Assembly (NCBI GenBank): GCA_002633005.1
Contig: NMRA01000826.1
Location: forward strand, 66,978-130,977
Direction: 5' to 3'
Origin: Phoronis australis
Taxonomy: Eukaryota > Animalia > Phoronida
Length of the DNA stretch: 64,000 bases
Position numbers and translations under genes: made by a program. The notes below the pieces were generated by a model. It saw only the letters and a program-made list of their open reading frames with translations, was not told the DNA's origin and searched no databases. The stretch's first letter is position 1. Each line of letters starts with the position of its first letter. Below are positions 25,689 to 53,541 of this stretch, one piece after another.

Positions 25689-25791
25689 GGCGTGGATCCA
25701 TACACCGCAAGACAAAGCTTGCACTTGCAATAAAAAATCTTTGCTTATGGAACAAGCTCACTGACCAAGTACTTCAGGGTCGCCATATTGC

Positions 25792-30532: not shown

Positions 30533-30554
30533 TTAAGGCATCTTTTTCTTCTTC
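30533..30554 (-). CDS. Nested gene probable last coding exon (KKKKMP*)
   Basis: strong acceptor ttttctgtttcag, phase 2; minus-strand AATAAA at 30239-30244. Confidence 0.45.
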
Positions 30555-30930
30555 CTGAAACAGAAAATTGAACCATAACGTAAAGACCTTGTGCTTGTGC
30601 TTCACATACTATATATAGTTAAAAAACACAAACATTGAATGAAACTCATTATACTGCATGAATTTAAAGAATTTTGTGCTTGGTTTGCAAATGATTAGGA
30701 CTGTCTGATATTCTTGAATTTACTATGAGTTCAGGATGGTTTTCACAAGCTTCAATGTGATAAGCAACTTTTGGGACACTCATGATTCAAATTAACTGTC
30801 CTTTGAGTACGAAAAAGGTATACATTTTCTGAATCCTTGAGTGAACACTTAGAATACTAAAATCTTGCTCCTGATCATCAGATTGAGACTTTTGTGTTAA
30901 AGTTGCTTTTTCTCCAAGCACGAATTTCTG

Positions 30931-32979
30931 AACAAGAGCAACGCAGAGCGTTGAAATGCGCCCACGAATGCATCGCTAACGATGTTCTTCTAGGGGTGTT
31001 TACTTCGAACATAAAAATAGCAACCAGATGGCGCAAAATGTCAATTCCATCTAAGAACTTGCATGTATCATCAAAACTATTTACCAAATTTCATAAAAAT
31101 CCGTAAAGGAACTTCTGAGAAAACAGGAAAATGAAACAAGAGCAACGCAAAGCGTTGAAATGCGCCCACAATTGCACCGCATACGGTATCCTTTTAGGGT
31201 TGTTTATTGGTACCATAAAGTGGCCAGTAGAGGGCATATATGTAGTATGTTGTACTTAGCAAAATGGAAAGGTATGGTCATTGTCTCCTCAATAGGCTAG
31301 GGGAAAAATGTGAGTAATCTTCATAATACAAGCACATCCTATACACCAGTTGCTTAAAGCACCACAGAAACATAGAATTAAAAACAAATTTACCAACATA
31401 CGAGATTAGCACAGCACTAGAATGCCAGAAACAAATTTCTACTTGGAACTTTTCCTTCATAGTCACGAAGTAACACAAAGTATACACCTGAAGACCTATG
31501 AAAATACAGAGGTCAATGTAAAATACTAAAATTGCCACTAGAGGCANAACTTCATGAACGTATGTCAGAGGGTTTTGGAGATAGAGTAGTGGACGCCGGA
31601 CGCCGCCCGGACGGACGGACGTACGGACGGACGGACAGAGATGACGGCATAATGCGTCCACATATAAATATGTGGGCGCATAAAAATGAAAATGCCACTA
31701 TATAAGCCCAAAAAACATAACTGCCACTATGAGGCGCCAAGGTAGATAACGTCATCGGAAAATCATCATCAGACTTCCTCTTCACATTTTAATAGGAATA
31801 TAAATGCCAATTTCCACAACCATCCTTAGAGTGGTTTGGTTGACAGAGGGGCAGACATCAAATTACAAGACTCGAAAACAGTAAAAATGGCCACAAGGTG
31901 GCGCAAAATGTCTCCAATTTTACCAAAAAGCAGATGATAACGTCACCTCACTAATAGATGCCTAACTGCCAAATTTTCTGAAAATCGATTGACGACCCAT
32001 TAAGATACAGACAAACGTTAAAAACTACAATTGCCACTAGGGGGCACACGAGTAGCCCGATCCTTCCAAAAGTTGTCATCCTCTGTTGTCACATTCATAT
32101 AAATACACCAGCAAAATTCAATAAAGATCCTACAGAGCGTTTAGGAGATACAGCAATGGGCGCAAAAACAAACAAAACTGCCACTAGGACGCGCCATAGT
32201 ATTCGAAATCTTCGAAAATCATCGTTAGCCACCGTCTTCACATTAAGAACATATGGTTGATAGAATGGCGGATACCAAAAACCAGACTCAAAAACAGTAA
32301 AAATGGCCACTAGGTGGCGCAAAGTACCACAAATCCGTCCGAAAATGGGAGGATGGCATCATTTCACTAATAGATGTCTAACTGCCTTATTTTATGAAAA
32401 TCCATTAAGGACCTCCAAATCTACACTGGAGGTAAGCGTAAAAAAATTAAAATCGCCACTAGTATTCGCAGAGGTCCGAAATTCGTTGTCATCGGTCTTC
32501 AGCTTAATGGGAAAACATCTGCCAAAGCTCATTAACATCCTGTGAGGGGTTTAGGAGATGCAGTCTGGGCGCAAAAAACAAACAAAACAATCACCAGGAG
32601 GCGCTAAAGTTGTTGACGTCTTCTGAAAATCATCGTCAGTCGCCCTATTCACAGTAACAACATATATCAATGCCAATTTTAAAAATCATACATCGGTTTT
32701 GTAGATAGAACAGCGGACACCAAAAAACAGATACGTAAACAGTAAAAATAGCCACTAGGAAGCGCAAAGTATCCCGAATCCGTCCGAAAACCGTAGTCGA
32801 AGAGGTCCAAAACTCGCCATCGTCCGTCGTGAGCTTCATAGGAACACATCTGCCAAATCTCATCAAGATCCTGGGATGGGTTTAGGAGATACAGCTGCGG
32901 ATGGCGGATGACCGGATGCCCAGACAGAGATGACGATAATATGTGACCACATATAAATAATTATGTGGACGCATAAAAA
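30931..32979 (-). mobile_element. HINE-like element with a second HINE (31135-31686) inserted inside
   Basis: two AACAAGAGCAACGC starts and two terminal hairpins in nested order. Confidence 0.8.
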
Positions 32980-35900
32980 TCAGCAGGTAACACCCATGTT
33001 TGAAGTATTAAATACTGAATATTTTTTACAAACAATGGAGGTACCAGCCATAAAAATTACCTCTTGAAACCAATTCCACAAGTTAAGTTTTGTTGGTTTT
33101 CATTCTTAACGATTGATATTTTAATTTAAAATAAAAATCTCAGAGAATTGCTTCTCTTTGCCACAGACCATAAAATGAGTATACCAGTTTTGAGCAAATG
33201 TCCCCACTTATAGAGAAAAATGTTCAAGACTCCTAAATGTTGAAAAGGAAGTAACCAATAAAGATATTTGGTTGAAGTTGTCCAAAACATCTCGCACGTT
33301 TGGCACATAAAAGATGTGAATAAAGTCCTCATCTCAAAGGGCATTCTAGTTCAAAAAAATTATTATGAAACATGGCATAATGTTCTTATTTTCTGTTATC
33401 AAATTAAAAGCTTTTTTAGCACAACTTTGTACATCGGACGAGATCGGAAAATCATCGACTATTCCTATCTATTTCCGTGACCTGAGTTCCTGTGTGTCAG
33501 TTCAGGAACGATTCTTAAATGACGGTCATATTGTCCTTGAAAACGTATTGACATCACCGTGAGCGTAAATGTATTGTTACTTTGTTTGGTTGCTTTTGAT
33601 TCCCATTTTGGTTCTTTTTATACAAACTTGATTATTTAAAGTCCAAATTTTACTTGTTCTTTGTATATGACGAATGGTATTTAATGCATAATCATAAGTT
33701 TGTGAAGTACCGTCACAAAGTCTCCCATAGTCAACACTCGGCTACTGAGGTCAGCCCTGACTCATCGCGAGGGTAGGTCAAATTTCAACAACAGTACCCG
33801 TTTAGGTAGTATATCAGAGGAAAAAAGTTTCTGAGTCAACAAATGTCTTATCATTAAATTGATGCAAAGTACCAGCCTGAAGTTAGCAATTGCCGTGTCA
33901 CGGTGACTACCCAAACGTGTGAGCGCAGTGTGTAATTGGCAGCAAATCGGCACCAGTTTTACTGGCTGTTTAAAAATGTAAAATAAAAAAGAACATCCAC
34001 ATACGGCGATGTTTCGACAATCAAAAACAAGTTTTATCTCAAAACTGACAGTGAGCTTTACATCTGTGCTTGATTTTGCTGTCAGGACACAGAAACCAGC
34101 GAAGTAATTCGTCGCGACTCTTCGCCGGGAAAATAATCACTTGATAAATTGGCTTTGGTTTTCAATCATCACTGACAATATATTTCCAAACCTCACACAA
34201 AAAACTTACAATATATACCTCTGTTGTCTAAATATAAAAATTCCGCGCCGCAAACCGGGGCGGGGGAGGAGTGTAGAGGATTTTCGTCAATGAGCTGAAT
34301 GTCAGCGATGGGAAAATATTGGTGTTAGGAGCATGACACAGTATTTTTTAATCTCTTTGTCACAGGAATTTCACTCATTCAGAGCCGGGTAGCTAATTTT
34401 CATCTTGCTACATGGAGCAGACGTCCGACCGCGTACCATGGCAGCGTTTTCCCGTTCAGTGACTTTACCAGACGTAGGGGGTTCTGAGCATGCGATAAAA
34501 TCTAGCTTCTTTGTTGACTGCCAAGCACACTCTTTTATCTGTTATGACAAGTAGGCCAATTATCTACCATGAGGCTTATTACAGACCACGTGTGAACACA
34601 GTCAAACTCAGAGTGACTTGGTGTATTCGGAAAGAATAGATTGTCGTACCTTCATTTGCAGTAAGGCCATTTTGGCGATTCAAAAACTAAACATGATCCC
34701 AATTTGATGAAGACTTCAGAAATACTACTGGTTTATGTTCAAGTATGTTATAACTCAACTTTTTGTTTTAACAGCACAGCCCAGTCAGGGTAGATAGGAA
34801 CTTATTGGAGATTAGAGCAATTATCGAACAACAGAGAGCTGGCTCTCCAACCATAAATGCCAGAATGAAGTTAATCAGTCGTGTCAGATATTGGCTTCTG
34901 GGGGTAAACTTCCCAACTTGTTGTTTGGCTATAGAATCGAACAAGTTGGGAGCAACGAAAAAACGCCGTAATGTGGCAGGCCAGGCAGTCCGGCTTTGTC
35001 GGCTAGCAGCGTATACGAATGTTTCTGCCCAAGTGGGAATTATTCCTTTTACTTTAAACTCGTTAATACTTACAGTACCATTTGGAACCATGGCAAGTTT
35101 TCCACCTGCAGTTATTTCGCCTCCAAATTGTATTCTCTTGGCACTCAGCCGCCCGGCCGTAGCCGCCAAGTCGCGTCTAAATTCATTTTCCATATTCACG
35201 CAAGTTTAACTGTAAGGATATTCTAACTGTATAACAATTTTATTCAATATTTGATGTTGCGTGTTCGTTGTTCTGTTTATACTGTTTGTTTACCAGAGAC
35301 TGTTAAACCCAGCAAAACACGCTTATCGTAGCCCGCCATAGGCCCGTTATTATTCAATCGTTGCCGCAAAACTGTTACTAGTCCTTAATTTTATACAAGA
35401 GTCGGAAACTATTTTGGTATGTACACGGCATTCATGATTTGAACCATTTATTCCGATAAAACACTGGGACGGCATGCCTTCATCTTTTGTCAGTGCGAGT
35501 GGTCTGATCGGTCAGCACCAGGTCATTGGCTGCAGATCCAAGCTCGGCAAAATAATTTCTGCCGAAATTTATTTTCAATTGACACATTTTGTTAACATTT
35601 TCAATACAAATTTTCCCTATTTTGGTTTTAGAAAAGTTGAGGTCCGCTATCGATTATTTTATCCCCGTTTGGAGGCTGGTAACGGACTCTGCTCCAGTCG
35701 CACAGCTGGCGTATCCTTAGCCTGGGTTCCTGAATGAATTGTACTTCTGGCTTCGCAGTTAGTTCAAAATGGCAGTGTGATCTTCCAATCGGAATTATGA
35801 GTGATGCGTTTATTTAAACTTTCTTCGACTACGGATTGTGTATTGGTTACGGGATAAGTACTGAATGGTTGCTAAGAATGTCCTCGAACCACTTAATAAG

Positions 35901-36022
35901 GGTTAAAAAACATGTGCTTCTAGGACTTTAAAGAATTCCTTTTGAGGGTAGCAATTAAATCTTAAGACCTTATTTTAGTAATGACGCACATGTTGCATTT
36001 CTGAAATAAGAACTCTACTTAC

Positions 36023-36300
36023 GCATATGCTGTAATCACCTGGACAAGATTATCGGGAGGAGTTATGCAGCCACCACATAACTGGCTTGGCAAAGACCCA
36101 ACAACGTAACTTGGGAACACCTGGAGGGTATGCATTCTCCCCTTGCCTAATTGCAACGACCCTTCACTTTCTGACATTGTAAATTTTCCATCTTCATCAA
36201 CGTAGCCAATGGGCTTTTTACAATGTTGGAGCGAGTTTGGTCCAACCCACCGGCCCAAGTAAATAGCACCTCTGCTCCACTCCACAATGCCAATAATTTC
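36023..36300 (-). CDS. Nested gene exon (beta-rich C-terminal domain)
   Basis: ttgttttag|EIIGIVEWSRGAIYLGRWVG...NLVQVITAY|gtaagt; 278 nt open; phase 0-2. Confidence 0.6.
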
Positions 36301-36355
36301 CTAAAACAATGCGACATTAACATAATTCAACAACATTATGTATCAAAGCTCTAAA

Positions 36356-38071
36356 AACAAGAGCAATGCGGAGCATTGAAATGCACCCACGAATGCATTG
36401 CAAATGGTGTGCTTTTAGGGTTGCTTATTTGTGTCATAAAATGGCAGCTAGATGGTGCAAAACATACAATCTGTCCGAAAGCGGGAACATGTCATTGCTT
36501 CTTTAATAGAAAGCTAAACTCCAAATTTCATAGAAATCGGTCATGGAACTTCAGAGAAACAAAGGAAATCAGAATAAAATGAAATTGCCACTAAGGGGGC
36601 ACAGTGTTCATTGGATCCGCCTGAAAGTTGTCATTGTCTGTTGTTAGCTTCATATAAATAAACTTACAAAATTTAATAAAGATCCTGCAGTGGGTTTAGT
36701 AGAGGCAGCTATGGGCGCAAAACAAAACAAAACTACCACGAGGAAGTGCAAAAATAGTCAAAGTTGTCATCATCAACCGTCCTCTTCACACTGAGAACAT
36801 ACACGCCAATTTTCAAAACCATCCTCAGAATGATTCGGTTTATAGAGAGGTAGATGCCAAAAAACAGATTCAAAAAGAGCAAAAATCACCACTAGGTGGT
36901 GCAAAGTACCTTGATTCCATCCGAAAACAGGAGGATAGCGTCATCTCACCAATATATGCCCGTATTCAAAATTTTATGAAAATCTGTTGAGGACCTTTGA
37001 AGGAAAACGTAAAACTAAAATTGCCAACAGGGGGCATACGAGTAGTCAGATCCATCCCAAAATCATCATCGTCCGTTGTCAACATCATGTAAACACACTT
37101 CTTAAATTTAGTAGTAAAGATCCTGCATATGGTTTAGTAGATACAGCCATGGGCGCCACAGTAGTCGAAGTCATCGGAAAGTCATTGTCAGCAATACACT
37201 TCATAGTAAAAACATACACGCCAAATAACAAGACTTGAAAACAGTAAAAAAGGCTACGAGGTGGTGCAAACTAGGTCAAATCCATCTGAAAACGGAAAGA
37301 TAGCGTCACCTCACTAACAGAAACCTGTATGCCACATTTTATGAAATTACGTTGAGGACCTTTGAAGATACAGACTGAAAACGTTAAAAAAAAAATTACC
37401 ACCAGGTGGCACACCAGTTGTCCGATCTGTTCGAAACTCGTTGTCGTCTATTGTCAACATCATATAAATGCACTTACTAAGTTTAGTAAAGATGCTACAA
37501 ATGGTTTAGGAGATATAGCCATAAGCGCAAAACAACAAAACTGCCACTTGGAGGGGCCACAGTAGTCGAAGTTGACAGAAAATCATCGTCAACCATCCTC
37601 TTCATAGTAAGGACATACATGCCAATTTTCACAATCATACTTAGAGCGATTTGGTTGATAGAGGGGTGGACGTCAAAAAACAGACTCGAAAAAATGGCCA
37701 CTAGGTGGAGCAAACCAAGTCGAATCCATCCGAAAGCGGGATGATGCTGTCGTCTTACTAATAGATGCCTAATTACCAAATTTTATGAAAATACGTTGAG
37801 GACCTTTGAAGATACAGAGGTAAACATAAAAAACTAAAATTGCCACTAGGGGGCATACCGGTAGTCGGATCCGTTCGAAAGTTCGCTCATGCTGTCCCAT
37901 CAATGAAAGGAACACAATGTGCAAAATTTCATGAACATACGTCAAACCATTTTGAAGATAGAGCAACGGACACTGGACGCCGGACGGACGCTGCCCGGAT
38001 GGATGCAGATGACAGCATAATGCGCCCACATATAAATATGTGGGCGCATTTTATACGTGGGCGCATAAAAA
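36356..38071 (-). mobile_element. HINE-like element with internal ~145-bp tandem array
   Basis: both termini present; repeated GCCACTAG units. Confidence 0.82.
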
Positions 38072-38226
38072 TACTGCATCAGTAATGAGGGTATCTTGAA
38101 AAAGCTACCAACATTTTACGCAATTACATACTCAGACAACTTACATCAATGTGTTTTTCCTTCACCCTCTTGGCACGAGGTTCATTCGCCTGTAAAAGTT
38201 TCATAATTTTGGTTACAGTGAAGTTA

Positions 38227-38446
38227 GAGCTGTTCCAGTAAAATCTGTATGGGAATGGGGGAAGGCACCTTTTTTCGCACCCACCACCCATATTTTTCAT
38301 TTATTTCTTCAGCCTACTACCCGTAATTTTTTATAAGTTTGAAATGCAACCACCCGTAATTTTTTTTGTTCTTGTGGTTGACTGCACAGGCGCTTGAGTT
38401 TATCTGTTCCTCCATCACCACTAACGTCATTCATTACTAAGAAAAC
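38227..38446. mobile_element. Harbinger-type MITE left part, cut by an assembly join
   Basis: near-identical to 7550-7770; TTA flank. Confidence 0.8.
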
Positions 38447-38860
38447 NTGCAGATTCTGGTTATAACAAATTTTAGCAAAAAATATAACTTTGTGTAAGTT
38501 GGCAGCAAATTTTCTTCAAAGCAAGGGCAGTTGAACCATTGTTTTCATGTTCACAGCAGTTCTGTAGATTATACTACTCTTAACAATGACAGCTGTGTCC
38601 AATCAAAAATCCATGTGGCCATCTGCGTCTTTTCACTTCATTATTACAATGAACATCAGGCACCTGTTGAGTTGTGTCTATACAAAAGCGGGTGACATTC
38701 TGAACTTATGAGAGGACTATAGGGAAGCAAAAATCAACAGAAGCCAGTGTAATATTCAATAAAAAACACATAAAGATAATGACACAAGTTGCTGCTCAGA
38801 TGCATCAGAAATTTTGAAGCGGTGACATCATGATTACTATATTTGATAATGTTTACATAC

Positions 38861-38923
38861 TTTGTCAGACTTTCGTTTGTTGTTAACTGGTTGGCTACTG
38901 ATGGCACCCTGTCTCAATTCATC
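38861..38923 (-). CDS. Nested gene exon (basic, NLS-like KRK)
   Basis: cctttcag|DELRQGAISSQPVNNKRKSDK|gtatgt; phase 0-0. Confidence 0.55.
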
Positions 38924-39469
38924 CTGAAAGGTGAAAAATACACTGCAATAAACTGCACAATTACGATAAAAGCAACCCTGCTAATTGTAACAAAAAGCTT
39001 CACTGGGTTGGAAAATAATGGTAAGCAAATTGCTACTTAATTAAGTACACATCAGAATTTCGACATCCCAAAAGTGTAGTTATTTCTTTTTGATGCATTC
39101 AACAAAACTTACTAAAAATAGCACAGAAGCGTCATGGTGAATAACTGGTTGCCTATTAAAATATACAAAAGTCATACAAGATCATCTAAATTCAGGCACA
39201 AAACAGTTTATTTGCAAGACGCGTTTCCCAGAAAAACTACATTTTCACCAACTTTCTTGTGTTTAATAAGCGCACATACTGTGTTTCTTACGTGGAGAAT
39301 TTTATTCTCAGTCCAAGATACCCATTGGTTTACAAAAAACATAATCACAGTTTGTCAAAACAAAATACCACTTTGGTGTCTGCCCGTGTTGTGTGCTGAA
39401 CCCAAACTTGATGATCCAGCAAACGCAAAATATTCACGCATTTCCAGTTTCTGTTCTTAATTCATCATT

Positions 39470-40090
39470 CATAAACAAGTACAAAAAACAGACAAATACA
39501 TCCATTCACACCTCAGAAAAGACCATTCTTGTATCTCATATAAAGTAAACAACTGGTACATTGAGTTAAAGTAAACACTAAAATTTTCCCATTTCCCAGA
39601 GAAGCTGTCACACACAAAACTTTTAAACGAAACTAATTTTTCATGATTATAGTACTCATGAGTATATGTAACAAACTTGTGAATATTAGGAATATTTTTG
39701 TGACATCTCTCCTCATAAATGTACTGTTTCGCTGGTAATAGCAAAATGTTAAATAAAAAATCATGTGTCTCATAAAGTCCAAGAATAAGACAAACAGTTG
39801 GGAAGTTGAACGAGACACTTTTAAGAAGTTTCTGAATTCCTTTCAAAAACCTTCTACAGGGCGACATTCCCAAAAAAGGTATGACAGTGTCTCTGGAACT
39901 TCATAACAAAAGGAACATAAATTAGAGTCCCGAAATTAGATTTTGACTACAAAAAAGTATTTGTCGCAATAATCCTGTAGAGTGTAATACTCTAAATTGG
40001 AAATATGTAAAGTTGGGATCCTTTGTAATTTCATAAGGCAATGTGTATATTATGTTCTTCCAATCTATACTAACTCAATTTCCCAACAAA
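39470..40090 (-). mobile_element. Tx1/L1 LINE ORF2 C-terminal fragment
   Basis: frameshifted DWKNIIY..FQFRVLH..LCSFCYEVPETLSYLF (zf-RVT), then ILGL..NILLLPAKQYIY..HEK..KW. Confidence 0.75.
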
Positions 40091-40687
40091 TATGTGTGAC
40101 GGGACGTTCGTAACTTTACGCTTATTGTTATTCTTATTTAGTTGCAAATGTTCAGTTATTCTTATGCTAATGTCTTTGTTGCGTCTCAGTGCGCCTTTGT
40201 TACGTGGGCATGCGGGCGCGACTGTATGTGTCGGGCACTTCACTAGCGACAGGCTTAGGAGAAGGGTGTTTGCCTTCCTTTGCCTACATGAAATTGATCG
40301 TCATCATGTGTAACTGAACTGAACGTATGCCTGATGAGGAAAAATACACATTTTTGATGCTCAGTGGAGACTTGCTCTGTTACATATGTCTACAACCCTT
40401 CACAATTCCAGGTTGATGACTGCATCCACAAAAAATCACATCCACCCACCCAGCAGTTAGGGAGATTTTAAAGATATTTACCAGTATAAGCAGACATTCT
40501 CGCCTGAGTATACCCAACCATTCTAAAACAACCAAAGTAAACAAACGCCCCTCGCACTGAGGTATGGCTTGCGCTCTTGCCCCGGCATAAACTGCTTCTG
40601 AGAAGGTGCATAATGAAGGTAAAGGGACTCCATAGCCTTCATAAAGCATATTAAGCTCATTTACATGAAAATTAAATCTCATGAGAN

Positions 40688-41113
40688 TTTACTGGAACAG
40701 CCCTCATACTTTTTATTTAAAAATCATCAATTTTCTTACATGTGTTAACACCAGTTTAGTGTTGCATAACTTTTCAATTCAATAGGACTGCAGACAATCA
40801 GTTGGCTCAAATCAAGTTGCCCATGACTTGATTAATGGCATAGTGAACATATTGCACCCTGTTCACTGGCAATATGAGCTTTTTTATATTGGGATATGTT
40901 AGGATATATGCCAATTGCATTTTTTTGAGTTTTGACGGCTGAAGAAACCAACTTGTCAACATTAACAGGTCAAAAAATACCACCCATTTTTAATGCATCA
41001 CTTCTTACAGGAACGACCACCCATAATTTGTTTTTTTTTCTGAAGACCACCACCCATGAATCTTTATTTCTACTGCTGTCCTCCCTCCCTCATGGATTTT
41101 ACTGGAACAGCCC
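40688..41113 (-). mobile_element. Harbinger-type element end (inverted relative to 4074-4490)
   Basis: TIR TTTACTGGAACAGCCC at 41098-41113 and again at 40688-40703; interior matches the reverse complement of the 4074 copy. Confidence 0.75.
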
Positions 41114-41117
41114 TCAT

Positions 41118-41236
41118 GAGAATCCATTAAATCTCAGGAGAATCCATTAAATCTCAGGAGAATCCATTACATCTCAAGAGAATCCATTAAATCTCAAGAG
41201 AATCCATTATATCTCAAGAGAATCTATTAAATCTCA
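41118..41236. repeat. 19-bp tandem repeat (GAGAATCCATTAAATCTCA) x6
   Basis: seen directly, just inside a donor of the nested gene. Confidence 0.92.
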
Positions 41237-41249
41237 TAAGTATCCATAC

Positions 41250-41426
41250 CTGAAGTCTTTTCAACAGTCCAGTGAGTCGGGCAATTTCATTCTTTTTTTC
41301 CTCCAATTCATTGGACAATACGTTGAATTGATCCTGTAGACATTTGTGGGCTGTTTCAGCCTCTCTGCGAAGGTGCTTCTCAATGGACAACCTTTTCTGA
41401 ATAGCTCGTATTTGGCTTGTAGAATT
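41250..41426 (-). CDS. Nested gene exon (coiled coil)
   Basis: ttgcag|NSTSQIRAIQKRLSIEKHLRREAETAHKCLQDQFNVLSNELEEKKNEIARLTGLLKRLQ|gtatgg. Confidence 0.78.
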
Positions 41427-41898: not shown

Positions 41899-42024
41899 AT
41901 CTCCTTCCTTCCGCTTTCTTTCATACATTTCGTTTTCAAGCTGTTCAAGCTCCCGCTCTGCTTTGTTTGCTCTTCTCTCTGCTTTTTCTAATTTCTGCTC
42001 AGACTGTTCCAAAGCCAACTTCAT
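41899..42024 (-). CDS. Nested gene exon (coiled coil)
   Basis: MKLALEQSEQKLEKAERRANKAERELEQLENEMYERKRKEGD; phase 0-0. Confidence 0.75.
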
Positions 42025-42846
42025 CTACAGCCGATATTTTAGTTCAGTCAAATTGCAAATTATTGAGTGTCCAATTGATCGAATCACTTGGCTACTTCGT
42101 ACAATATATAAATAGTCATATGACTCAGTCTATACTTTATTTCATTCAAATTCCATATCATTGAGTGCCAGATTTATCAAATCACTTGGTGTTACTGTAT
42201 TGTGGATGCACGTCTCTCCGTTGTTACGTATTCTCACCAGAGGTCAATTTGGGTTTTAACCAATGTTAAGTTGTTGACCGGGCAGTTCAAGTTGGTCTGT
42301 GACAACGTGCGGATGTGAGTGGAAATTATTACAATTAACACTGATAAATTGTTAGCTAGTCACTGGTGCTGAACATTCTAATGACTGGTTATATGCAGTC
42401 AAACTACTGATTAAGTATTTTGTTGATAAGGTGAGCGTATTCAACTGTGTAGACAGCTATGTCTGCTGTTGTGCGTGGAACACGTCTGTAATATTTAGTG
42501 GGAAGCTGTGAATCATGTGGGTACAACCAGATGATGACGATGACTCGAGATACCACAAGCTCAATTGGTGGTGTTCGTCCCTGTATTATGTTATGTATAA
42601 CCACTTGTCAAATATTAGTATGTTTAAGATGTAAACATTGCACAAAATAACTAGAGAGGTTGCTATACATAACATGTCAAGTTTTAAAACCGTAGTTATT
42701 TTCTTGAATTTATGCTGCTACTTGCTATCATGGAAATATATACCTGGCTATGAAACACTTAAAAGACACCTTACATTGAGAACACAACCTGCCTACATTT
42801 TTAAACATTGTTTGTAACCAGACACAATCACGAACCACCAACCTAC

Positions 42847-42913
42847 CTCTGTTACATCTATCTCAACGTCACAATCTTTCTTTCCAGTCTCAGCAGATTT
42901 GAATGTATTGCTC
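42847..42913 (-). CDS. Nested gene exon
   Basis: ttgttttag|SNTFKSAETGKKDCDVEIDVTE|gtaggt; phase 2-0. Confidence 0.75.
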
Positions 42914-43837
42914 CTAAAACAAAAAAGGATGTTTTTGATAAACTAGCATTTCCACTCTAACAGTCTGAGAATATTTATTGTTTGTAATTACATTTTTTAT
43001 GGAAAAGTAGGGTGTAACTGTAAAATGACAAGTAAAATGAAAAATATCAAGAACTGTTTGCAAAGCATGGTCATATTTTTTCTACAGACAGGAATCTTTT
43101 ACTAACATTTATTTGTTTATTTATTCATTGTAATATTTACAATGAAAGTGGCCTCTTCAGTGATAGCACTGCTTTCCGAGAGGGCGCTTAGCAACAAAAT
43201 ATAAAACAGTACATGTAGGACAGGCTACCAGAACAACAGGTCTTGGGAACACAACATATCTCCAGACTTATGAACACGGCTCAGACAAAAGTTATTTAGG
43301 TTAACGTTGGACCGTAGAAAAGCATCATCCTACTCTGGATAACTTTTAAGCATCATATCTGAGAAATGGCTCAACGGATTCAAATCTTTTTTGTGCTATT
43401 CTCCACAAGAGGAGCTATCGAAAGAGGAATTTGATGATCAAAAAATCAAAAGTTGCATGAAACGAAAAGGAAATAGTCTTTTGAAATTTGATCATGGCTT
43501 TGAAATGAAATTTGGTTATGTATCATTCTTTATAACATTGACTAGCCATGGAAGTACCTCTTTTTGCTAGATTGCACTAAAGACATGGCCATGTGACTCA
43601 ATCACAGACAAAAATGTACTATAAAATCAAAAACCGAATCTTAAATTACATTTTCTACTTTCAGAAAATGAATACTCTAGCTATTTGCTTGAATGCATAA
43701 TAAATAAATGGTGAAATGTGAAAGGACTTCACGATGGTAGAAAAAAGATTTCCGAATGATATAGACGAAGTGCGTTGCTAAAGATCCAATAGGAGAGTTT
43801 TAAGTTACCTCTGTTGTGGGAATGAATATTGACTTAC

Positions 43838-44097
43838 TTTGAACCTTGGTCCTTCAACTTTTCTTTAAATTGTTGAAAAGTGATTTTTCGTTCATTTAGG
43901 GACTTAATAAGTTGCAGACTTGATGTACTGGCATCCACATTTATAAATGCATATTGCGTCAAGTCCTGCTTCAGAGGCTGACCTCTGAGCTCCTTATTTC
44001 TCCAGCGCTGGAAGGTTGTCAGTAATTCTTTGAATGTGTCTTGTGGGAGGCAAGCCACTTTCAGATGAACTTTGTACTTGTTCCGCAACTGTTGTAT
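43838..44097 (-). CDS. Nested gene exon (helical region after the ParB-like domain)
   Basis: gttttag|IQQLRNKYKVHLKVACLPQDTFKELL...FQQFKEKLKDQGS|gtaagt; phase 0-2. Confidence 0.8.
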
Positions 44098-44589
44098 CTA
44101 AAACAATACCATCACTATTTGTGGGCAATGAACGCTTGTAACCTCCACCATTATAAATTCTTCCAAACTATTTAGTGTTAGCTAGTTGACACTGCAGAAA
44201 TAAAAGAAATTTATTTTGCCAGAGAAAAGTCAAAATTTTATAATTAAATTTAGATTTTCAAAAGCTATCTTATTCACTGTCAGCTGCAGCACTACCAAAA
44301 CACTGAAAACAACACATCTTTACTTCTTTACCATGATCGCGGACTTAAATACAAAGTCCACGCTAAAATTGACACAGCTGCTAATCAGGCTGTGTGAGAA
44401 CATTTTGGGCGAACATGCGTGGTATTGCACAATTTCAAAATTGCATATTAATGCATTTTAGTTGCATAGCAGTACTAACTTGTATTGAATGAAAAACACA
44501 ATTGTTCCAAAATGAGGGAAAAAATAAATTATCTCGGCCTTCCAAATTTTGCAAGCAAATTTGTTGGACTAGACTTATCAAAATGTCAC

Positions 44590-45086
44590 CTTTTCTATGC
44601 GGAGAATTTTTGCCAAGTTGGTCCTCAATTCCGATTTCAATTTCATTTCCATTCGTTCAGGAGATGAGTGCAGCTTGACAGCTTCTTTTCGGAAAAGTAT
44701 GACATAATCTTCAAAAGTCATTGGTTTTGATACAGTCGAAATAACATTGCTATCATTTCCCAGTGTCAAACACTGTTCTGTAGTGAGGCCCCAATATATG
44801 TTGATGGGCCATTCCTTGAAGATACTGTTCTCCTTGGCCAGATCCTTAAGTGCCAAGTGGGTATGGTTACCCCCTATAATTTGGACGGGTATTGAAGAAC
44901 TGATGATTTCTTCGTAAGAAGGTTTTTTTGAGACGTCAACGAGCCCCAACAGAGCTGTTGTTCTGGTTTCCGGACGCATCAAGAGAGACTCTTTCAAAGC
45001 TTTAACATGCTTTGCGTCAGCAGTACGGCACATGATGCCATTGTCTGGCTGTCTCATTTGAAGCACTGGGATCATGAGATAGTTAC
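44590..45086 (-). CDS. Nested gene, ParB/Sulfiredoxin-like domain exon
   Basis: 497-nt open exon: RTADAKHVKALKESL...VQIIGGNHTHLALKDL...INIYWGLTTEQCLTLGNDSN; follows the ParB N-terminal pattern (R, helix, strand, IIxGxH..A, V, helix ending N). Confidence 0.8.
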
Positions 45087-47530
45087 CTATAACAAAACAA
45101 TGTTAGACAATCACGTTACACTCAGTAAGCACTTCCGGGTATTGTTCATTTCAAGCAAATGACAAATCTTAATGTGCAACAAGCATTAAACATAAAAGTA
45201 TCAGAATTTCTACCCTAACAATAATTAGTTAACAAAAGTGACAGTTGCAGAACCGTTCCGCATGCAGAACCATTCTGCATGGGGAGCGATTTCCTAAACA
45301 GAATGGTTTTGAGGGATATTCGTTTTGCCTAATCAACTTAAAATGCATTCCATTCCCATGCCACTTGAAAGTATCAATGTGACATGGCTGTTGCGGAACC
45401 ATGCGGAATCTGAGTGACAAGATGAACAACACATCTATAAGAGGAAACACATTTCATACAGGTCATAACTGTGATGGCGTATCTAGCACATAACTATCCT
45501 AAGAAAAATTCTGTAATTAGTCAATAAGGCTCCGAGACAAACAGACAACCGCATCAAAACTTAGTGTGGCCCTAGCTCTGGGCTCATGTAGGAATTGCTT
45601 AAACTTTCGCCATAAAACTTGCTTAGCTATTTTTGTCCGCCTTCAAAAACCTTGAAAGTCTGTCTCCTAAACCTGTGATCTGGCATTTAGCTGTCAAGCA
45701 TAACATCCCGTCTGATAGGTCACAAAGTGTGCACTGTAAACTTGAAGTTATTCTAAACTTGGAGCACTCTAGAGACACATTGTTGTGCAGTTCTATCAGT
45801 CTGCGTACTACTCATGATGATGAGTTTTACCAGGACCAGTTGTTTTTGTAATCGCTTCTACTTAATCATTCCCACCTGAAAAAATTCAGTTTTGTCACCC
45901 AGACATTTTCTACTCTGACATCTTGCCCTGTGCTTGACATGGGCATCCAGTCATATTAAGTTATTAACCTCCAAAATAATCCCCCAACTTAATGGCTACA
46001 ATATTATGTCTGTGTAGGTTCTGGACTGTACTACAAGATAAATTGCCTGATCAGCATGTCTATGAGTGATGTCTATGTGGAATCAGCTTCATCCATCTGG
46101 TTTTGTTTATGCTCTGGTTTCAACTCACCATGTAGCAGATTGAAGGTGCCTGATGAAGTGGTTGTTTGCTAGAGTTGTTCACTGGTACTGACTTAAAATT
46201 GATAAACAGTGACTGCTATTTTAAGAATCTGTGCAGTTTAAGTTTCATGTTCCTGGGTCAGATAAGAGGTGTAGTAGTAATGGTTTGTTCAACTACAGCA
46301 CTTACATGATGAAAGCAGTCAGACAGATTGTGGCTGACAACTTGGTTACTTTGTTTTATATATCTGAGGTTACTGTAACTCAGATCTCATGACTGTTTAT
46401 AGTGTTGTCAGCTAATTCAATATTTATGTTCTAAAACTGGCTTGAAATGTTTATCTCAAACATGCTTTATCAATTAGTTGTCAAGGTTACAAACTTGAAA
46501 GCAGCCTTTTCAAACTGGTTGTAACTCCAGAACTAAGAACAGCTGGATATATAGGTAAGACTGAACAATGAACTTAATGTTGAAATTTGCTATATAATGA
46601 TTAGATTACATTTAACAAGGAATAATTAATTTATAAGTGTTCAGTCACATTAATTTTGTAGTGGAAATATCTTTCAATTCTGCGCAAAATTAATTACTGG
46701 TATGTTTTATTGCCATTACCAAAAGTACATACCCCCCCAACACAGTTGACCATTCCCTTACAGTAAAAGAGCAGATTTCAAGGGAATGACAGGCATGAAA
46801 TGGAACATTCACTAGCTATTTATAGCACTCAGAATCCAAGTGAGAAATGTCGTTTTGCAGTTCGACTATTAGAAGTGAGTGTTGAGTCGACACGAGAGTA
46901 GGTTTCCCGAAATTAATTCATTTTGTCAAGTTGTGAAAGCATTCGCCACTTTAACATATGTACTGCACTCTAACATTGCCAGTGGCGCTCACAATTGGCC
47001 AATGGCAAGCTGGCGAGTGGCTAGTGCAAGCCCAGGAAGGTGACAGAGTTCACACAATATTCCTTAGTTGTAGTCTACACCTTCATGCAGCAACATGAGA
47101 AGCTGTAGAAATGGCCAGGATTCAACCCTTTCATCGTTTTTTGAGAGTGAGGCCAACGTGTAAGGAATATTCCCTCAACTCTCACACGACATGAGGAGTT
47201 GTCACGAAGCGCAGGAAATATTCTCTGCTTGAAGATATTAAGCATAGTATTTGGAGAACTACCTGCTTGCAGTGATGGAATGTCCCGTCACAAAGAATAA
47301 TATTATGCATAAAAATCCTCAATTTTGCCTTATTTCTTTATCAAATTTCTATAATCTGCAGTCACACCCAAAAAGGTGCTGGAACAGATATTCCTTTTTT
47401 GAAATAGAAACAGTTGCCGCCGCCAGGCTACAGATACAAAAACTGTTGTTTTAAAGTGACATACACATTGTTTCATAATGTGACTTTATCATGCTACTCA
47501 TTCTGAGCAATGTACTCTACACTTACATAC

Positions 47531-47588
47531 CAACCAATTTGTCTGAAAGTGCACCATCATGTTCCACATGTGAAGGCAAACTTGCAGC
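47531..47588 (-). CDS. Nested ParB/Srx-like gene exon
   Basis: atttcag|AASLPSHVEHDGALSDKLV(G)|gtatgt; phase 0-1. Confidence 0.65.
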
Positions 47589-49566
47589 CTGAAATTAACA
47601 GATTTTCATAAAATAAAATACTCCTTCTATAATACCACAGCCAATGTTAACAGCAGTATATTCAATACTAACCCTGTTACATTTAGTAAGTATTAATCAG
47701 TTGATGATAAAACAAAGCAGTTGACTTAAACATTGCTAGTTAAAGGTTATCTCCAACCATATTTAGTGGTCTCCATTCTAACTCGTAGATTAAAAAAACT
47801 AAGTTGCCAACTGGTAAAAGTCTATATTTTCTGAAACAAAAAATAGCTGGGAATATAGAAATCTGTTTTGTATTTATGTACCATTATTATTTTTACGTTA
47901 CTTTACAACACCCTTTTAAGTCAAAATTTCATTTTTAAGAGGGGTACATTCATAGCAAAATAACCCCTCAGTCTATTTCAATGAAAGATTTAGTTCACCA
48001 GTTACCTAAAAACGCTGTTAGGAATTTTCGATTAGTCCTTTCATTTGGTTTTCATGACAAATCAAATCGCAAAAAATAAGGAATTTTTGTAAAAAATAGG
48101 AGTCGAATTCGTCTTTGTTAGATTATGACAAAACTAGGGCTTTTTATTGAAACTCCTAACAGCATTTTTGAGATTGATGAATTAATATTAAGTTTGGAAA
48201 GTTTCGGCGAATTCCACCAAGCCCTTTTTGAAAACTCGTGTTCTTAAGTTCAATTACAGTTGATTTGCTGAAGCCGAGAAAAAGCTGATTAAACTGGGAC
48301 GAGCAAAAATGTCAAAGTCTTCGGTATACTATTTGGTGAAAACTTGTTTTCAGTAAATATAACCTATACATGCCTTAACCATGTTAGCTATTTCAACATT
48401 CAATCACAATCTTATGTCAACTGAATTTGCAGTGTGTAATTAACTTAATTATCATTAAAAGTACCGTCCCCAGCCAACTGAGACCTACTTTGAAGTAGGT
48501 CGCAGCTCATTGTTATTAACATAGTCTGTATGCATCACGTACCGGGAGACTGATAGGACACCTACGGTAGTAAGAAGTGGATAACAAAAATCGAGTTGGT
48601 GGTTAAAGTTTGTCCTTAGCATGAGATCAAAATAGCGAAATGCCAATGTACTTATTGAGTTAATTTAAGGAATTTGCATGAGGATTTATCTCATTTCACA
48701 ACTTGTTGTGTTCGTGACCACAAAGGCGTGAGGCGACTCGTAGAACTCGTTCTCAACAGTCGTATGCATGTATACGCACAACTCTTCAGGATCAAAACTA
48801 AGTTAATGTCTTTGTTTTCTCCGCCACTGTTCTAACATAAGTTCACCTCATGGACTCTATTATGGCGACTCGGTGAATGAAAGGGCATAGGGTATATACG
48901 AAGCTGCTCTATACCTGGTGCGAGATTCGATTTGAGTGACCTTTGACCTCGGATAAGTAGTAAACAAATATCCACGCGGTTGTGCGGTTCTAAGGTGGTT
49001 CTGCTAAATCTTTTTTCTCGCTACACTGTATATATTTTGTATTTGAAGTTACCCCAGAATAAAGATAATGTATTTTGCTAGACACATGTGAAATATTTTT
49101 GAAAATGGCCAATTTTTGTGAATAAGGTTTGAGATATCCTTAAAAGACAAACACACAACTTGTGGCAAAAGGGGATGACAATAATAACAGTTAGTGTAAT
49201 AAATAATAAGTCAATAATAATTCATCATTAAGAACACTTCATGTAGCAAAAATACAATGGTGGTACAGTACAAAACAGTGCCACATATCAAATGAGGGCG
49301 AATTACCGAATGCAAGGATTGAAGATATGTGAGTGGCAATTAGAAACTGGCAAACATGAAGCAACTTCATGCAAGGGGAGAGTATAAAAAGATGACTAAT
49401 GGAGATCATACAGCAAATAATTTAATAACTTCTGCTTTTTTCTACTAACATATTAACAATTCATTTTTGGAACAGAGCACTTGCTGACAAATCAAACTCT
49501 CAGGTAAAGAATTTCTCCAAAATTAAGACAATTCATCTTATACAACTGTTGTAAAATCATACTCAC

Positions 49567-49610
49567 AGCATGACTTTCTGTAAAATCTTGATCAACAGAA
49601 GCTTGGTATT
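49567..49610 (-). CDS. Nested ParB/Srx-like gene exon
   Basis: tttccag|(E)YQASVDQDFTESHA|gtgagt; phase 1-0 reconciles the neighbouring exons. Confidence 0.55.
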
Positions 49611-49621
49611 CTGGAAACAGT

Positions 49622-50237
49622 AACAAGAGCAATGCAGAGCATTGAAATGTGCTCACAAATGCAACGCAAACAGAGTGATTCTAGGGTTGTTGTTCTTGTA
49701 TCATAAAAATGGCAACTGGAATGCGCAAAAAAGTCCATTCCATCCGAAAACGAGAACATGAACATACCCACAGGCGTCCTCAGCTTTTGATCGTCCACAA
49801 TACACTATATAATACTACAAGGTATGACACTCCCGACTAGAAATTCCACGGGTGCTTCACTTCAGCCGTCCATAGCAAACACAAAACTCAATAAATTTAC
49901 ACAAAACATAGGTTCAACAAACCATGAGGAATTGTTCTTTCTCCCAACACCATTTACAGTGTCCTGCTTCACCCAGTTCGCAAGAAATTTGCGGTCAAAG
50001 CACAAAATCTTCCCAAAAAGCCCGTCCGGAGAAACTCCTTTGTAAATGGAAGTTAAACGACGATAGGGAATCATCCAATGAGTTACAGATGAACAGCAGT
50101 TGCCAATTTGTCACGGAAAGTTAAGAAATCGTGAAAGGTTTAGAAATAGAGCAGCAGATGCCGGACGGAGGGACAGTCAGAAGGACGGACGGAGATGACG
50201 GCATAATGCATCCACATATAAATATGTGGGCGCAAAA
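49622..50237 (-). mobile_element. HINE-like element with an unrelated interior
   Basis: both termini present; ~49760-50125 does not match the array. Confidence 0.7.
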
Positions 50238-50691
50238 CAATTCACTTGTTTGGGATGGCGAAAAATTAATTATTTTGCTCAAAGTTGGAGATCGTACCAA
50301 ATTTTAGAAATATGCAAAATTGGTCATCCAAAATTCAAGAATTATGAAACGAATTTAGCTATGGCAGCTATTTTAAATGATTTCATCTCAGAGTTGATAC
50401 AAAATGCAGTGTCCAATATTTCAGAAATATGATGAATGCTTTAATTACCAACAACCTCGTATTATTTTGGCTTGAATTTCAGTGTCCTGAACTTTAGAGA
50501 CTGTCCCAAACTGGAAAACTTTTGTAGCATATTTTCAGTTGACACATTCCCAAAGTTGTTCTCTATCAATTGTGGTTTGTCTTGTGCAGGAAACGTGCCG
50601 ACTAAAGCCACGTCTGTCGTGAAAATGGCAAATTTATTTGATCACTCATTTCAGCTATCAAAAAGCATAATGGCAATTCAGTTGCACTTAC

Positions 50692-50824
50692 CTTGAACAA
50701 TCGTTGCCCACTTTTGAAGAAATAGTGTTCTGGATAATCCTTTGAAACAAGCAGAAATTGCATTTTTGTCAACCTGTAGATTTTTAAATTGTACACTGAT
50801 CTGCTTGCCATCACTCAGTGTCAC
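50692..50824 (-). CDS. Nested ParB/Srx-like gene exon
   Basis: attttag|VTLSDGKQISVQFKNLQVDKNAISACFKGLSRTLFLQKWATIVQ|gtaagt; phase 0-1. Confidence 0.55.
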
Positions 50825-52152
50825 CTAAAATAGTAATAAACTTGCTAATGCCCAACAGCATTTTTAAACAAAGTGAGGAGAGAATGTTGAGAGAATCTTC
50901 ACTGAAAATTTATGAATTGTTACCAAATAGTTTGACTTAACCATAATTCAAGCCACATCTTGCAAAAAATCGTGCTGATGAATATCATGCCATTCACAAT
51001 GAGCATTGTACAGTAAAAACTGGTAAATACTTGACACTTGCATTTTGCAATTTGTTTATCCTGTATATCCATGATATCAGCAGGAGAGTATTGGAAAAAA
51101 ATATTGTATTCAGCTAATTTCAAATCTGCTTCCAAATATCAACTATTCTTGTTGCAAATAGCCAATATTTTGTGAACATGAGTTGCTTTGAGCATGAATT
51201 TCTGAAGGTTCTGAAGGAAGCAACTGAAAGGTCAGAAAGCTCACATTTCAAATCTTTTTTACTCATGTTGATAGTTGGATAGGTGGGTCACTCCAATAAC
51301 TCCAAAACTACAAATTAACAAGATACCTCACCCAATTCGTCTATAATTAATGTCAGTCCACGTAGTGGCAGAATTCAGGTCTGACATCATGTTCAGTTAA
51401 TATCAGGACCCAAATACAAGACACTAAAATCCATCTGCAGATGCCATTTTCATCAACAACCCGTTTGCATCCCCCTCTGTGATCAGAATTTTGACATGTG
51501 AATCATGAAACTTCCAATCTTGACAAGTAGTGCTGATGCAAAATCCCACGATTTCTGGAAATTTCACGTTTAAATGCCCGTGTTTGGTTAACTGCCCACC
51601 TCCAAATTTTTGAGTTTGCCAATTTAACCGCCCAGGGCGTTAACCTGAACGTTTACGATAAATGAGATGAACTCCTTTTTCTCCTTTCATTATACACGCG
51701 CCACAGTAAGAGATGGCACATTCCAACCGAAGGAGTCTGTGAGAAAAGGCAGCCTTCAACCTACAGCAAAATGACAAGCAACAAGAGTTAGTTTGCAGTT
51801 GTAGTACAGTTGCAAAATAACTCTTAGCCATTTGAAAATTTTCACTCCTAAATTAGTTTACAAATTTACTGTTACTACTTCAACTGACTGTTCAACTGGG
51901 ATTTATTTCAAGTGGTGTACCAGCTCCAACTTGAATTTCAAGTGTGGTTCAGCAGACAGAAAACTAGGATGATTTCAACTGGCCTTGAACTAGGATTTCC
52001 ACTTTTTTCAGTGTAAAAAAAAACAAAGAAACGTTTGAGTTTATGCTTCAAAATCTGTTGATCCCAAGACTAAGAAAGGATTTTGTAAGCTTGCAGTCAC
52101 TTAGTCAAGAAATCTGCCAAGGGTCAGTTCTTATGATCAAAATACTAGTTAG

Positions 52153-52562
52153 AAACAAGAGCAACGCAGAGCGTTGAAATGTGCCCATGAATATAACAGC
52201 ATCGCAAACGCTGTGCTTCTAGGGGCGTTTATTTGTATCATAAAAATTGCCACTAGATGGCGTAAAATACGTCGAAATCATCCAAAAACGGGAACATCTC
52301 AGCATTTACCAAATTTCACAAACATACGTCAGAACAAAGGAAAATGGGAAAAACGTAATTGCCACTAGGGGGCACAGCATTCATCAGATTCATATGAAAG
52401 TCGTGTCCATTGTCAACTTCATATGAATACAATTGCTAAGGTTGCCTTCGCCTTTAAGAACATTATTGCCAATTCTCAAAATCATTCTCAGAATGCTTTG
52501 ATTGATACAGAGGTGGACAGCAAAAAAAGAGACTTTGAAACAGGAAAAAATGGCCACTACGT
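52153..52562 (-). mobile_element. Truncated HINE-like element
   Basis: AACAAGAGCAACGCAGAGCGTTGAAATG end plus three array units. Confidence 0.72.
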
Positions 52563-53529
52563 GCATTTTGCGTCTAAAATTTTGACCTTTTAAAAACGTC
52601 TGATGAGTCAACAGTTAAGTAATTGGATTATAAGCATCAAACACACTTTTTACAGACTTTGCAATAAAGAATTCCACTAAAAGGGCTTATAAAGCTCTGG
52701 AAATGGTCATTCAGTGCAAAGGTTGTCTAATTTTCTTACATTCTTCAAGGAATTTTCAATTTCAGCACATATGCCAATCAAATACACTACTTTACTAAGC
52801 AATCAGACCATTCAATCAGATAAAATATGTCAAAGATCATGAAGTGTAAATTTTAAACTATAGACACTTCAGATTTACCCATGTGATTGATGCATGAACT
52901 GGAGTTTTAATTCCAAAGCTTCAGGTCATTTGGTGCAACCATGGAGTCAGAGAACATAGCTGGACGGAGATCACATGATTATAGACCACTCAATGTTGAA
53001 TTACTGATGAGTTACTGAATTATGGAGGACCCAGCCTACCATCTGTTCAATTATAACTAAATTCATAAAGTTCTTTTTCTATATTTTCCTCAGATACAAT
53101 TTAACTCATTTATTCCTGAAATAGGAAAAGAATGAAATGCTATTTTAGACCAACTTGAAATTTCAGTCACAAAAATCACACACGAATAAATCAAATTATA
53201 CTCACCCTCACAAAACCAACAAGTCTGTCAGTTTCAACAGATTTTATATGTGGACACAAATGGGATGAAGGAGTATCGATATAAATATTGTTGTTCTCCA
53301 GAGTAAACCACCAACTTGATGTAATGTAACAAGCACTCATGTCTCATGTGCTGCGGAGTGTATCAACTAACTGCTGCAATGACAACTGCAACTACAAGAC
53401 ATGTGGGAGCTTTACCAGCACTGGCCACTCCTTCTACATAAATACATGGATTGCCTGTTTACACAGCGTGATGGCCATTAGGGCATTCCTGTGAACTCAA
53501 CCTCATCTATCGCTTTTGTTTATGCTTAC

Positions 53530-53541
53530 CATGCAACACAT
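53530..53541 (-). CDS. Nested ParB/Srx-like gene, candidate start exon (MCCM)
   Basis: 27-nt exon 53530-53556, ccccttag|...atg|gtaagc; phase 0 joins the next exon. Confidence 0.35.

Follow-up and report, generated by a model that had tools for sequence, protein, structure and literature searches.

An intron-rich Phoronis australis gene with a predicted ParB-CTPase fold belongs to an unnamed family of invertebrate genes

Can an animal genome hold a gene built like bacterial ParB and, if it does, is the product a DNA-associated protein or something else? This question arose at a locus of Phoronis australis, within a 64,000-nucleotide stretch of contig NMRA01000826.1 (the whole stretch analysed, hereafter the window), where an initial annotation had proposed a spliced gene encoding a ParB/sulfiredoxin-like domain, coiled coils and a beta-rich tail. 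We found that this ParB-like gene is real, intron-rich and open in reading: our model runs on the minus strand from 53340 to 30533 in 13 exons, with 634 open codons and GT-AG borders at 12 of 12 introns. Homolog profiles matched five of these exons in the correct order and on a single strand (those beginning at 53340, where the match was weak, 50824, 45086, 44097 and 36300), while the linker, coiled-coil and last exons were placed by phase, splice sites and composition. The ParB-like peptide with its GGNHT motif lies, as originally described, in the core exon (45086-44590, minus strand), and the coiled-coil exons, basic patches and beta-rich tail are likewise all present in the joined exons. 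A join of 12 exons into ~578 amino acids without stops, also claimed at the outset, held only in part. The nine exons from 45086 to the stop codon at 30533 do join in frame through GT-AG introns, but the 5' end did not stand. The initial annotation lists no exons; our reconstruction (53541-53530, 50824-50692 and 47588-47531, followed by the nine) is the sole set found from the ATG at 53541 that gives ~578 codons, and at 1738 nucleotides (nt) it is one base out of frame and contains 39 stops. Both that start and that join look wrong. A profile of the N-termini of eight relatives matched 50824-50692 (E = 5e-4) and 53340-53206 (E = 0.054, rank 2 of 3504 open reading frames), and we therefore propose an alternative start at 53340; the first of these matches also settles the reading frame of 50824-50692. 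A candidate 44-nt linker exon (49610-49567) was included because exon 47588 would otherwise be out of frame; the reading would equally stay in frame if a 12-nt exon (47542-47531) were used instead, or if the join ran directly to 45086.

Two intron positions are common to this gene and the loci of its relatives. The phase-1 acceptor before the core exon falls at the same glycine in loci L001, L003 and L005, and less clearly in L004, and L001, L003 and L004 share the position of the phase-0 intron after the core exon. These shared positions lend indirect support to splicing. Poly(A) signals occur 3' of the stop codon, at 30385 and 30244. Three raw-read RNA runs (X1-X3) and one contig run (X4), picked by species label, were aligned to 34601-54600. 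Read depth in the core-exon bin, split by the direction of the first mate, was 1.81 vs 0.14 in X1 and 2.32 vs 0.45 in X2, and the bin of exon 50824 was covered in one direction only (0.73 in X1, 1.63 in X2). By the usual convention, the read direction over exons indicates minus-strand RNA in two of the three raw-read runs. No junction of the ParB-like gene appeared among the 15 joints listed of 338, a list dominated by repeats. The gene is likely transcribed at a low level.

AlphaFold2, supplied with an alignment of 85 of 111 homologs (long and very short ones were left out), folded the core exon with a predicted local distance difference test score (pLDDT) of 92.8 and a predicted template modelling score of 0.80; folding from the single sequence reached a pLDDT of 43.5 only. 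A Foldseek search with the model returned 11 matches at E <= 1e-3, headed by Noc (E = 3e-5), ParB and PadC (to 7e-4), with sulfiredoxin first at rank 20, and its viral matches were mostly proteins labelled ParB. Among 48,161 chains compared by VIA-align, the top eight were all of ParB/sulfiredoxin fold. PadC (Z 10.1, root-mean-square deviation 3.6, 123 residues aligned), KorB (9.8, 3.9, 120), SerK (9.6, 2.9, 87) and sulfiredoxin (9.2, 3.2, 84) were nearly tied in Z, and SbnI scored 8.2; however, model residues 1-164 are covered by the PadC and KorB alignments alone, whereas the SerK and sulfiredoxin alignments are limited to residues 1-111. In a sequence-profile search of the PDB with the exon alignment, sulfiredoxins were the only matches (E = 0.27-1). 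The ParB/sulfiredoxin fold assigned at the outset is thus borne out, at the level of predicted structure, by the model confidence and by both structural searches, and the core exon is predicted to adopt a ParB-CTPase fold that is nearest to Noc, ParB, PadC and KorB. The protein is not a sulfiredoxin, as was also proposed: asparagine stands in place of the catalytic cysteine, here and in 80 of 85 family rows.

Is this a lone gene? A phmmer search of 1.84 billion representatives with the core exon recovered 111 proteins at E <= 1e-3 (16 at 1e-10), the best with 35% identity; one of them, P0021, was dropped as a repeat artefact. Thirty representatives were looked up, and the 14 that bear a species name are without exception from marine invertebrates (Owenia, Tubulanus, Haliotis, Mercenaria, Saccostrea, Solemya, Mytilus, Diadema and Branchiostoma); nearly all the family members looked up are annotated as uncharacterised. 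Full-length relatives of 399-1031 amino acids typically comprise a small N-terminal beta domain, a low-complexity linker, the ParB-like domain, a helical region, a charged linker, a coiled coil, a basic patch and a C-terminal beta domain. Tails are of two types, one with sub-threshold Tudor matches and the other that of this gene. The Tudor/SH3-like barrel suggested earlier for the tail was not recovered here: a profile of the relatives' Tudor-type tails does not match it, and a Pfam scan of 19 homologs gave Tudor matches, all below threshold, in relative P0020 only (E = 1e-3). An alignment search with the core exon found five matches, all of them family members; word-index homolog searches with the same exon found none, and neither did searches of Pfam, NCBIfam and PHROGs. 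The Pfam ParB_N model matches 0 of 86 family rows, and DndB (PF14072) matches eight of the 86 weakly and below threshold (best E = 4e-4), this gene's own exon not being among them. Exact-motif scans, which distant relatives may escape, found no close relative in 184 and in nine viral-contig stretches or in phage records, and no close bacterial or archaeal member in two genome-contig stretches. Judged by these comparisons, the ParB-like gene belongs to a large family of invertebrate genes that has no name as yet.

In a quick version of the family tree (128 rows, after removal of 11 that covered too little of the domain, with P0021 left out beforehand), bivalve members are spread over several groups, and the Phoronis gene sits on a long branch in no well-supported group (end branch 1.38 vs a median of 0.46), its nearest relative having 34% identity. 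Four Haliotis species keep a member that is 94-96% identical, and conservation across Haliotis and two Diadema species is 94-99% overall, as expected of host genes. One identical Solemya protein occurs under three accessions on at least two scaffolds and Owenia has two copies that are 95% alike, which suggests recent copying. Feature-based neighbours of the core exon include a phage cluster at 0.95 and, at 0.94 for 44581-45084, an ascomycete cluster of DUF3723 (PF12520), a family with no Pfam match to this exon. Fungal Starship elements carry DUF3723, in which a ParB fold may have gone unrecognised; no literature combining the two was found.

The initial annotation had pointed to loss of the second arginine of the GxxR motif. 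This arginine, R95 of Myxococcus ParB and needed there for CTP binding, is indeed absent in the ParB register, but its absence is not peculiar to this copy, as threonine or serine occupies the position in 72 of 85 rows. The family instead keeps an arginine one place further on (71 of 85 rows), where this copy alone has histidine. Overall, the family reads G-N-H-[TS]-R where ParB has G-E-R-R-W, and H-N where ParB has E-N. For Myxococcus ParB, the published account describes Gln52 and Glu93 as catalytic and Arg95 and Arg130 as needed for nucleotide binding (10.1101/2021.05.05.442810). The family has no equivalent of these four residues: methionine or a variable residue aligns with Gln52 and asparagine with Glu93, and Box III has no conserved arginine three places after its invariant asparagine. 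A conserved polar set of the family's own (Arg17, Glu68, His74, Arg76 and His112) suggests that the pocket is remodelled but real. Within that pocket, the Phoronis copy carries E68Q, R76H (histidine in 0 of 85 rows) and H112S, and it also carries W153L. It departs from the family at 6 of 14 conserved positions, a count equalled or exceeded by 2 of 73 other well-covered rows, and keeps the hydrophobic core, the invariant asparagine, the Gly-Asn-His motif and the Box I arginine. The same family arginine has also been lost in annotated genes of Owenia and Diadema and in one eight-row group. According to a survey of the fold, many of its orphan members bind ATP or GTP, and the nucleotide is not predictable from sequence (PMC12704722).

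We compared the family core (22 rows) with 75 bacterial ParB proteins (of 120 loci) by profile-profile alignment. The two are colinear over 187 columns (E = 1.3e-3 local, 1.5e-5 global), a result reached by none of 40 column shuffles. The region after Box III follows the ParB helix-turn-helix (HTH) domain helix by helix, with a global score of 13.7 against a shuffled mean of 2.0 and maximum of 8.0, and is likely, on this alignment, a ParB-type HTH DNA-binding region. A coiled coil, recognised by its sequence pattern, lies C-terminal of the helical region. Family layout and profile alignment both support the domain order put forward at the outset, which is ParB-like in that a helical region and then a coiled coil follow the nucleotide domain. 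Modelling of the core-exon peptide with ATP and Mg predicted a self-dimer that scored 0.77, compared with 0.00 for the best of three controls, with at least 97% agreement in contacts between runs and a pLDDT of 82. In calibration, 21 of 30 solved pairs and 0 of 23 single chains reached the mark used for dimers (17 of 29 and 0 of 30, respectively, for eukaryotes). Residues 108-122 of the dimer model, which follow the invariant asparagine, cross to the partner's pocket (residues 20, 23, 26, 74 and 113), a crossing that we take to resemble the closed ParB clamp.

Where might such a gene have come from? A link to mobile elements, part of the initial proposal, was upheld for the wider family, in which a transposase stands beside the family gene at two of seven metagenome loci. 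These two, L005 (273-4817) and L007 (505-4107), are copies 88-98% alike in which the family gene lies head to head with an intron-containing, Sola-like transposase gene (DUF7869, E = 1e-13). At another locus, L002, the family gene is interrupted at 1600-2420 by sequence that resembles, by eye, reverse-transcriptase fragments, and this appears to be a disrupted copy. The 64-kb window yielded neither a transposase nor element ends above chance expectation, and three stretches searched with exact arms showed no palindrome array repeated above shuffles, although degenerate or distant sites may remain. The window is intron-rich eukaryotic DNA with many dispersed repeats; the long introns of the gene are full of these and its exons are open, which argues for long residence under selection. 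Two candidate pairs of element ends were rejected. A terminal inverted repeat with target site at 30516/57503 was set aside as chance, as it begins 17 bases beyond the stop codon and shares sequence with an exon candidate, and as about one repeat of this kind is expected by rough estimate. The inverted pair 29247-29378 and 59065-59199, which brackets the gene, belongs to an old dispersed repeat whose copies are 70-73% alike and include a third (47211-47335) inside the gene. Further minus-strand exon candidates flank the gene on both sides (61931-61750, 59513-59420 and 57499-57405; 28805-28651, 27270-27131 and 26296-26171). They may form one or two genes; were they a single gene, the ParB-like gene would lie within one of its introns. 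Pfam gave no match for them, and a search of the PDB gave weak chaperonin matches (E ~1) for one exon and none for another.

The account that we favour, though we find it about as easy to doubt as to accept, is that this gene encodes a transposon-derived, now host-resident, dimeric DNA-binding protein with the ParB layout and a weakened nucleotide switch. Its open reading, homology, shared introns and motif changes, and the transposase linkage of distant relatives, are direct observations, and the fold and self-dimer are predictions of modelling. From these we infer the HTH, DNA binding, nuclear location, transposon origin and domestication, and the words domesticated, nuclear and clamp, as applied to this protein, are interpretations. 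The gene would have been inherited from an accessory gene of a DNA transposon and then, likely, retained by its host. The product would dimerise by way of its coiled coil and its ParB domains, with DNA gripped between the HTH-like regions of the two chains. A nucleoside triphosphate would, in typical members of the family, close the ring as in ParB; this copy, because several family-kept pocket residues are lost, would rather be a poorly switched or constitutive dimer than an active NTPase. It might, for example, repress or bind the elements of its own family, or act as a chromatin tether.

Several observations weigh against this account. The HTH region is a weak match by local score (15.6 vs a shuffled maximum of 15.0) and gives no signal when context pseudocounts are removed (12.4 vs 13.3 shuffled); scores of profile hidden Markov models against single sequences are barely above those of reversed sequences, and no Pfam HTH model matched in 19 homologs. 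The dimer score may reflect memory of solved ParB dimers, because only one of seven eukaryotic pairs without an older solved relative reached the dimer mark, and the placement of ATP and Mg in that model is uncalibrated. The transposase-linked loci belong to a different part of the tree (a 26-row group, support 83) from this gene, and at the other five loci (1.9-6.7 kb) no transposase was seen by eye. Expression is low overall, with a core-exon depth of ~0.1 in X3 and none in X4, and a neighbouring intron bin is covered as well (0.54 in X1, 0.79 in X2).

A more ambitious account, which we consider unlikely, would give the family the complete ParB layout of nucleotide gate, HTH and dimerising coil and make it a nucleotide-gated sliding clamp on chromatin, the first in animals. 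DNA transposons would have spread it, domestication would have occurred several times, and this copy would be a switch-dead constitutive DNA bridge or transposon repressor. We lend similarly little credence to the idea that the gene is still the cargo of a large (>25 kb) DNA transposon or non-autonomous element with unrecognised ends, perhaps within an intron of the flanking minus-strand gene, and that its product binds sites of its own element. The linkage seen at L005 and L007, the near-identical copies in Solemya and Owenia and the same-strand exon candidates on either side (61931-57405 and 28805-26171) would fit, and Ectocarpus is reported to have giant non-autonomous elements whose only genes are accessory ones (PMC12477816). 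Set against these are the lack of terminal repeats beyond chance in the window, the lone inverted pair being a dispersed repeat with a copy inside the gene; the lack of palindrome arrays above shuffles in the three stretches; and the many repeat insertions in the introns, which suggest long residence.

The gene could instead be in slow decay, with the motif losses reflecting relaxed selection on a stranded transposon gene whose protein has no function. We regard this as more doubtful still. The copy is among the most degenerate rows at conserved positions, has a long end branch and very low read depth, and depends on two weak donors; yet its homology-supported exons show no stop or frameshift over 23 kb, every intron is GT-AG, the core and key motif residues are retained, and the same arginine has gone from annotated Owenia and Diadema genes and from the eight-row group. 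Least probable, in our view, is an old host enzyme of the ParB/sulfiredoxin fold with no DNA role, which would catalyse ATP-dependent phosphoryl transfer as do SerK, SbnI and sulfiredoxin. These three lie within ~1-2 Z of PadC, sulfiredoxins are the only sequence-profile matches in the PDB, and the fold binds ATP or GTP in many orphans, with a nucleotide that sequence does not predict (PMC12704722). However, SerK, sulfiredoxin and SbnI align over model residues 1-111 only, while the ParB match continues into the helical region; the sulfiredoxin cysteine is missing; and a DNA-associated mobile gene accounts better for the basic patches and the coiled coil, for a distribution that is patchy and multi-copy, and for the transposase linkage.

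What would a host-resident, transposon-derived ParB-like protein mean? A survey of the ParB-CTPase fold published in 2025 gives sulfiredoxin as its common representative in eukaryotes, and the words animal and metazoa do not occur in its main text (PMC12704722); the invertebrate family escapes the Pfam model on which such surveys rely. We found no paper on an animal ParB-like family, although the supplementary datasets of that survey and of two algal papers may list animal members; ParB genes in algal transposons are already published (10.1101/2025.02.11.637652, PMC12477816). If animal members do bind nucleotide and close round DNA, a bacterial-type switch would exist in animal nuclei, which raises the question of whether any eukaryotic protein is a CTP-gated clamp. 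Such a family would also widen the range of transposon accessory genes by one class, and would be a source of domesticated genes not known before for molluscs, annelids, sea urchins and amphioxus. The Phoronis copy, as a natural loss-of-motif variant, would be a useful comparison and a poor first target for biochemistry.

Table 1. Features of the ParB-like gene and of a repeat family in the window, with the evidence for each
Feature	Position	Strand	Evidence and remarks
Likely first coding exon	53206..53340	-	ATG 53340, 45 codons; first half of the relatives' N-terminal beta-rich domain; tblastn of relative P0068, E = 0.009; strong donor
Exon 2	50692..50824	-	133 nt, phase 0 to 1; second half of N-terminal domain, ending in family F-x-x-K-W helix; family profile matches, E = 5e-4 and 2e-3
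Candidate linker exon, tentative	49567..49610	-	44 nt, phase 1 to 0; best splice score of six candidates and chosen on that score alone; no homology, no read support
Linker exon	47531..47588	-	58 nt, phase 0 to 1; end aligns with residues preceding the ParB fold in relatives
Core exon	44590..45086	-	497 nt; predicted ParB-CTPase/sulfiredoxin fold and first helices of HTH-like region
Box I arginine, R20 of exon peptide	45025..45027	-	Kept; Arg in 75 of 78 rows; aligns with Arg of ParB QPR (R54 of Myxococcus ParB)
Box II GGNHTH	44857..44874	-	Alignment register; family GGNH[TS]R, ParB AGERRW
Box III Ser-Asn	44746..44751	-	Family His-Asn, ParB Glu-Asn; Asn in 83 of 83 rows, His in 69 of 83
Helical-region exon	43838..44097	-	Rest of helical region, weak alignment to ParB HTH domain; family profile, E = 1e-16
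Charged linker exon	42847..42913	-	67 nt; phase and splice sites alone
Coiled-coil exon 1	41899..42024	-	Weak donor; Tropomyosin-like heptads, sub-threshold, E = 0.002
Coiled-coil exon 2	41250..41426	-	Sub-threshold coiled-coil Pfam matches; family profile, E = 0.43
Linker exon, basic patch resembling a nuclear localisation signal	38861..38923	-	Relatives carry a KRK patch at the equivalent place
Linker exon, second basic patch	38145..38189	-	Joined-exon reading
C-terminal beta-rich domain exon	36023..36300	-	Type of Owenia, Saccostrea and one Mercenaria relative; four-sequence profile, E = 4.4e-5; no match in Pfam, PHROG and NCBIfam searches
Last coding exon	30533..30554	-	Basic tail and stop; no homology support
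Copies of abundant repeat family	20990-22110, 25300-25690, 30900-33000, 36350-38060, 49620-50230, 52150-52560, 59880-61540		Repeat and read data

Upstream of the gene, a motif at 57140 (also at 56277 and 57807) resembles the NRF1 consensus and is next to a minus-strand donor (57122); the promoter of the ParB-like gene and an untranslated first exon may lie here. The abundant repeat family in the table is dispersed and internally repetitive, has a palindromic end word and shows heavy RNA coverage in one direction. A 145-codon frame open on both strands (34771-35209) lies in repeated sequence with high read depth and has no Pfam match. An N-filled assembly gap at ~21400-21807 falls within a repeat, and single Ns occur near 31547, 38447 and 40686. 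Elsewhere in the window, a gene of the calnexin/calreticulin family occupies 1879-16085 on the plus strand, with an exon at 10602-10943 that matches PF00262 (E = 2e-28) and further exons at 1879, 2874, ~13200-13800 and 15912.

Among known systems, sulfiredoxin, SerK and SbnI share the core fold with this protein, and the GG-x-H motif aligns. Sulfiredoxin differs in its GG-C-H-R motif, with a catalytic cysteine where asparagine stands here, and in being small and single-domain, whereas this protein is multi-domain, has ~630 residues and includes a Box III helix and an HTH-like region; it falls outside the sulfiredoxins because the catalytic cysteine is missing. The ParB genes of algal transposons were compared through their published descriptions. 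Red-algal Plavaka transposons are described with PAG3, a ParB accessory gene accompanied by inverted-repeat arrays (10.1101/2025.02.11.637652), and Ectocarpus with Sola1-1_Ec32, which has a ParB-methylase gene head to head with a transposase (PMC12477816). The algal genes resemble ours in being eukaryotic and having a ParB-like domain, and L005 and L007 share the head-to-head design. As described there, however, the algal genes carry an oxygenase or methylase domain and sit in recognisable elements, whereas we found neither transposase nor arrays for this gene in the window. Pfam revealed no fused methylase or 2-oxoglutarate oxygenase in 19 homologs or in the scanned exons, and the remaining globular parts, of ~90 residues each, leave no space for such an enzyme; in its stead the protein has a coiled coil and small beta domains.

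The protein also resembles ParB, Noc, KorB and PadC. The likeness extends from the predicted fold, with the Box I arginine and Box III asparagine in register, to the predicted self-dimer of the nucleotide domain and to the order of nucleotide domain, HTH-like region, linker and putative C-side dimerisation element, a layout described for those proteins in PMC12704722. Differences lie in Box II, where the family has GNH[TS]R and ParB GERR, in the extra beta-rich domains at both ends, the long coiled coil and the 12 introns of this protein, and in the parS-like palindrome arrays, of which exact-arm searches found none in the three window stretches. Read from its sequence, the protein fails ParB membership at the GxxR, catalytic and Box III residues, yet it appears ParB-like in architecture.

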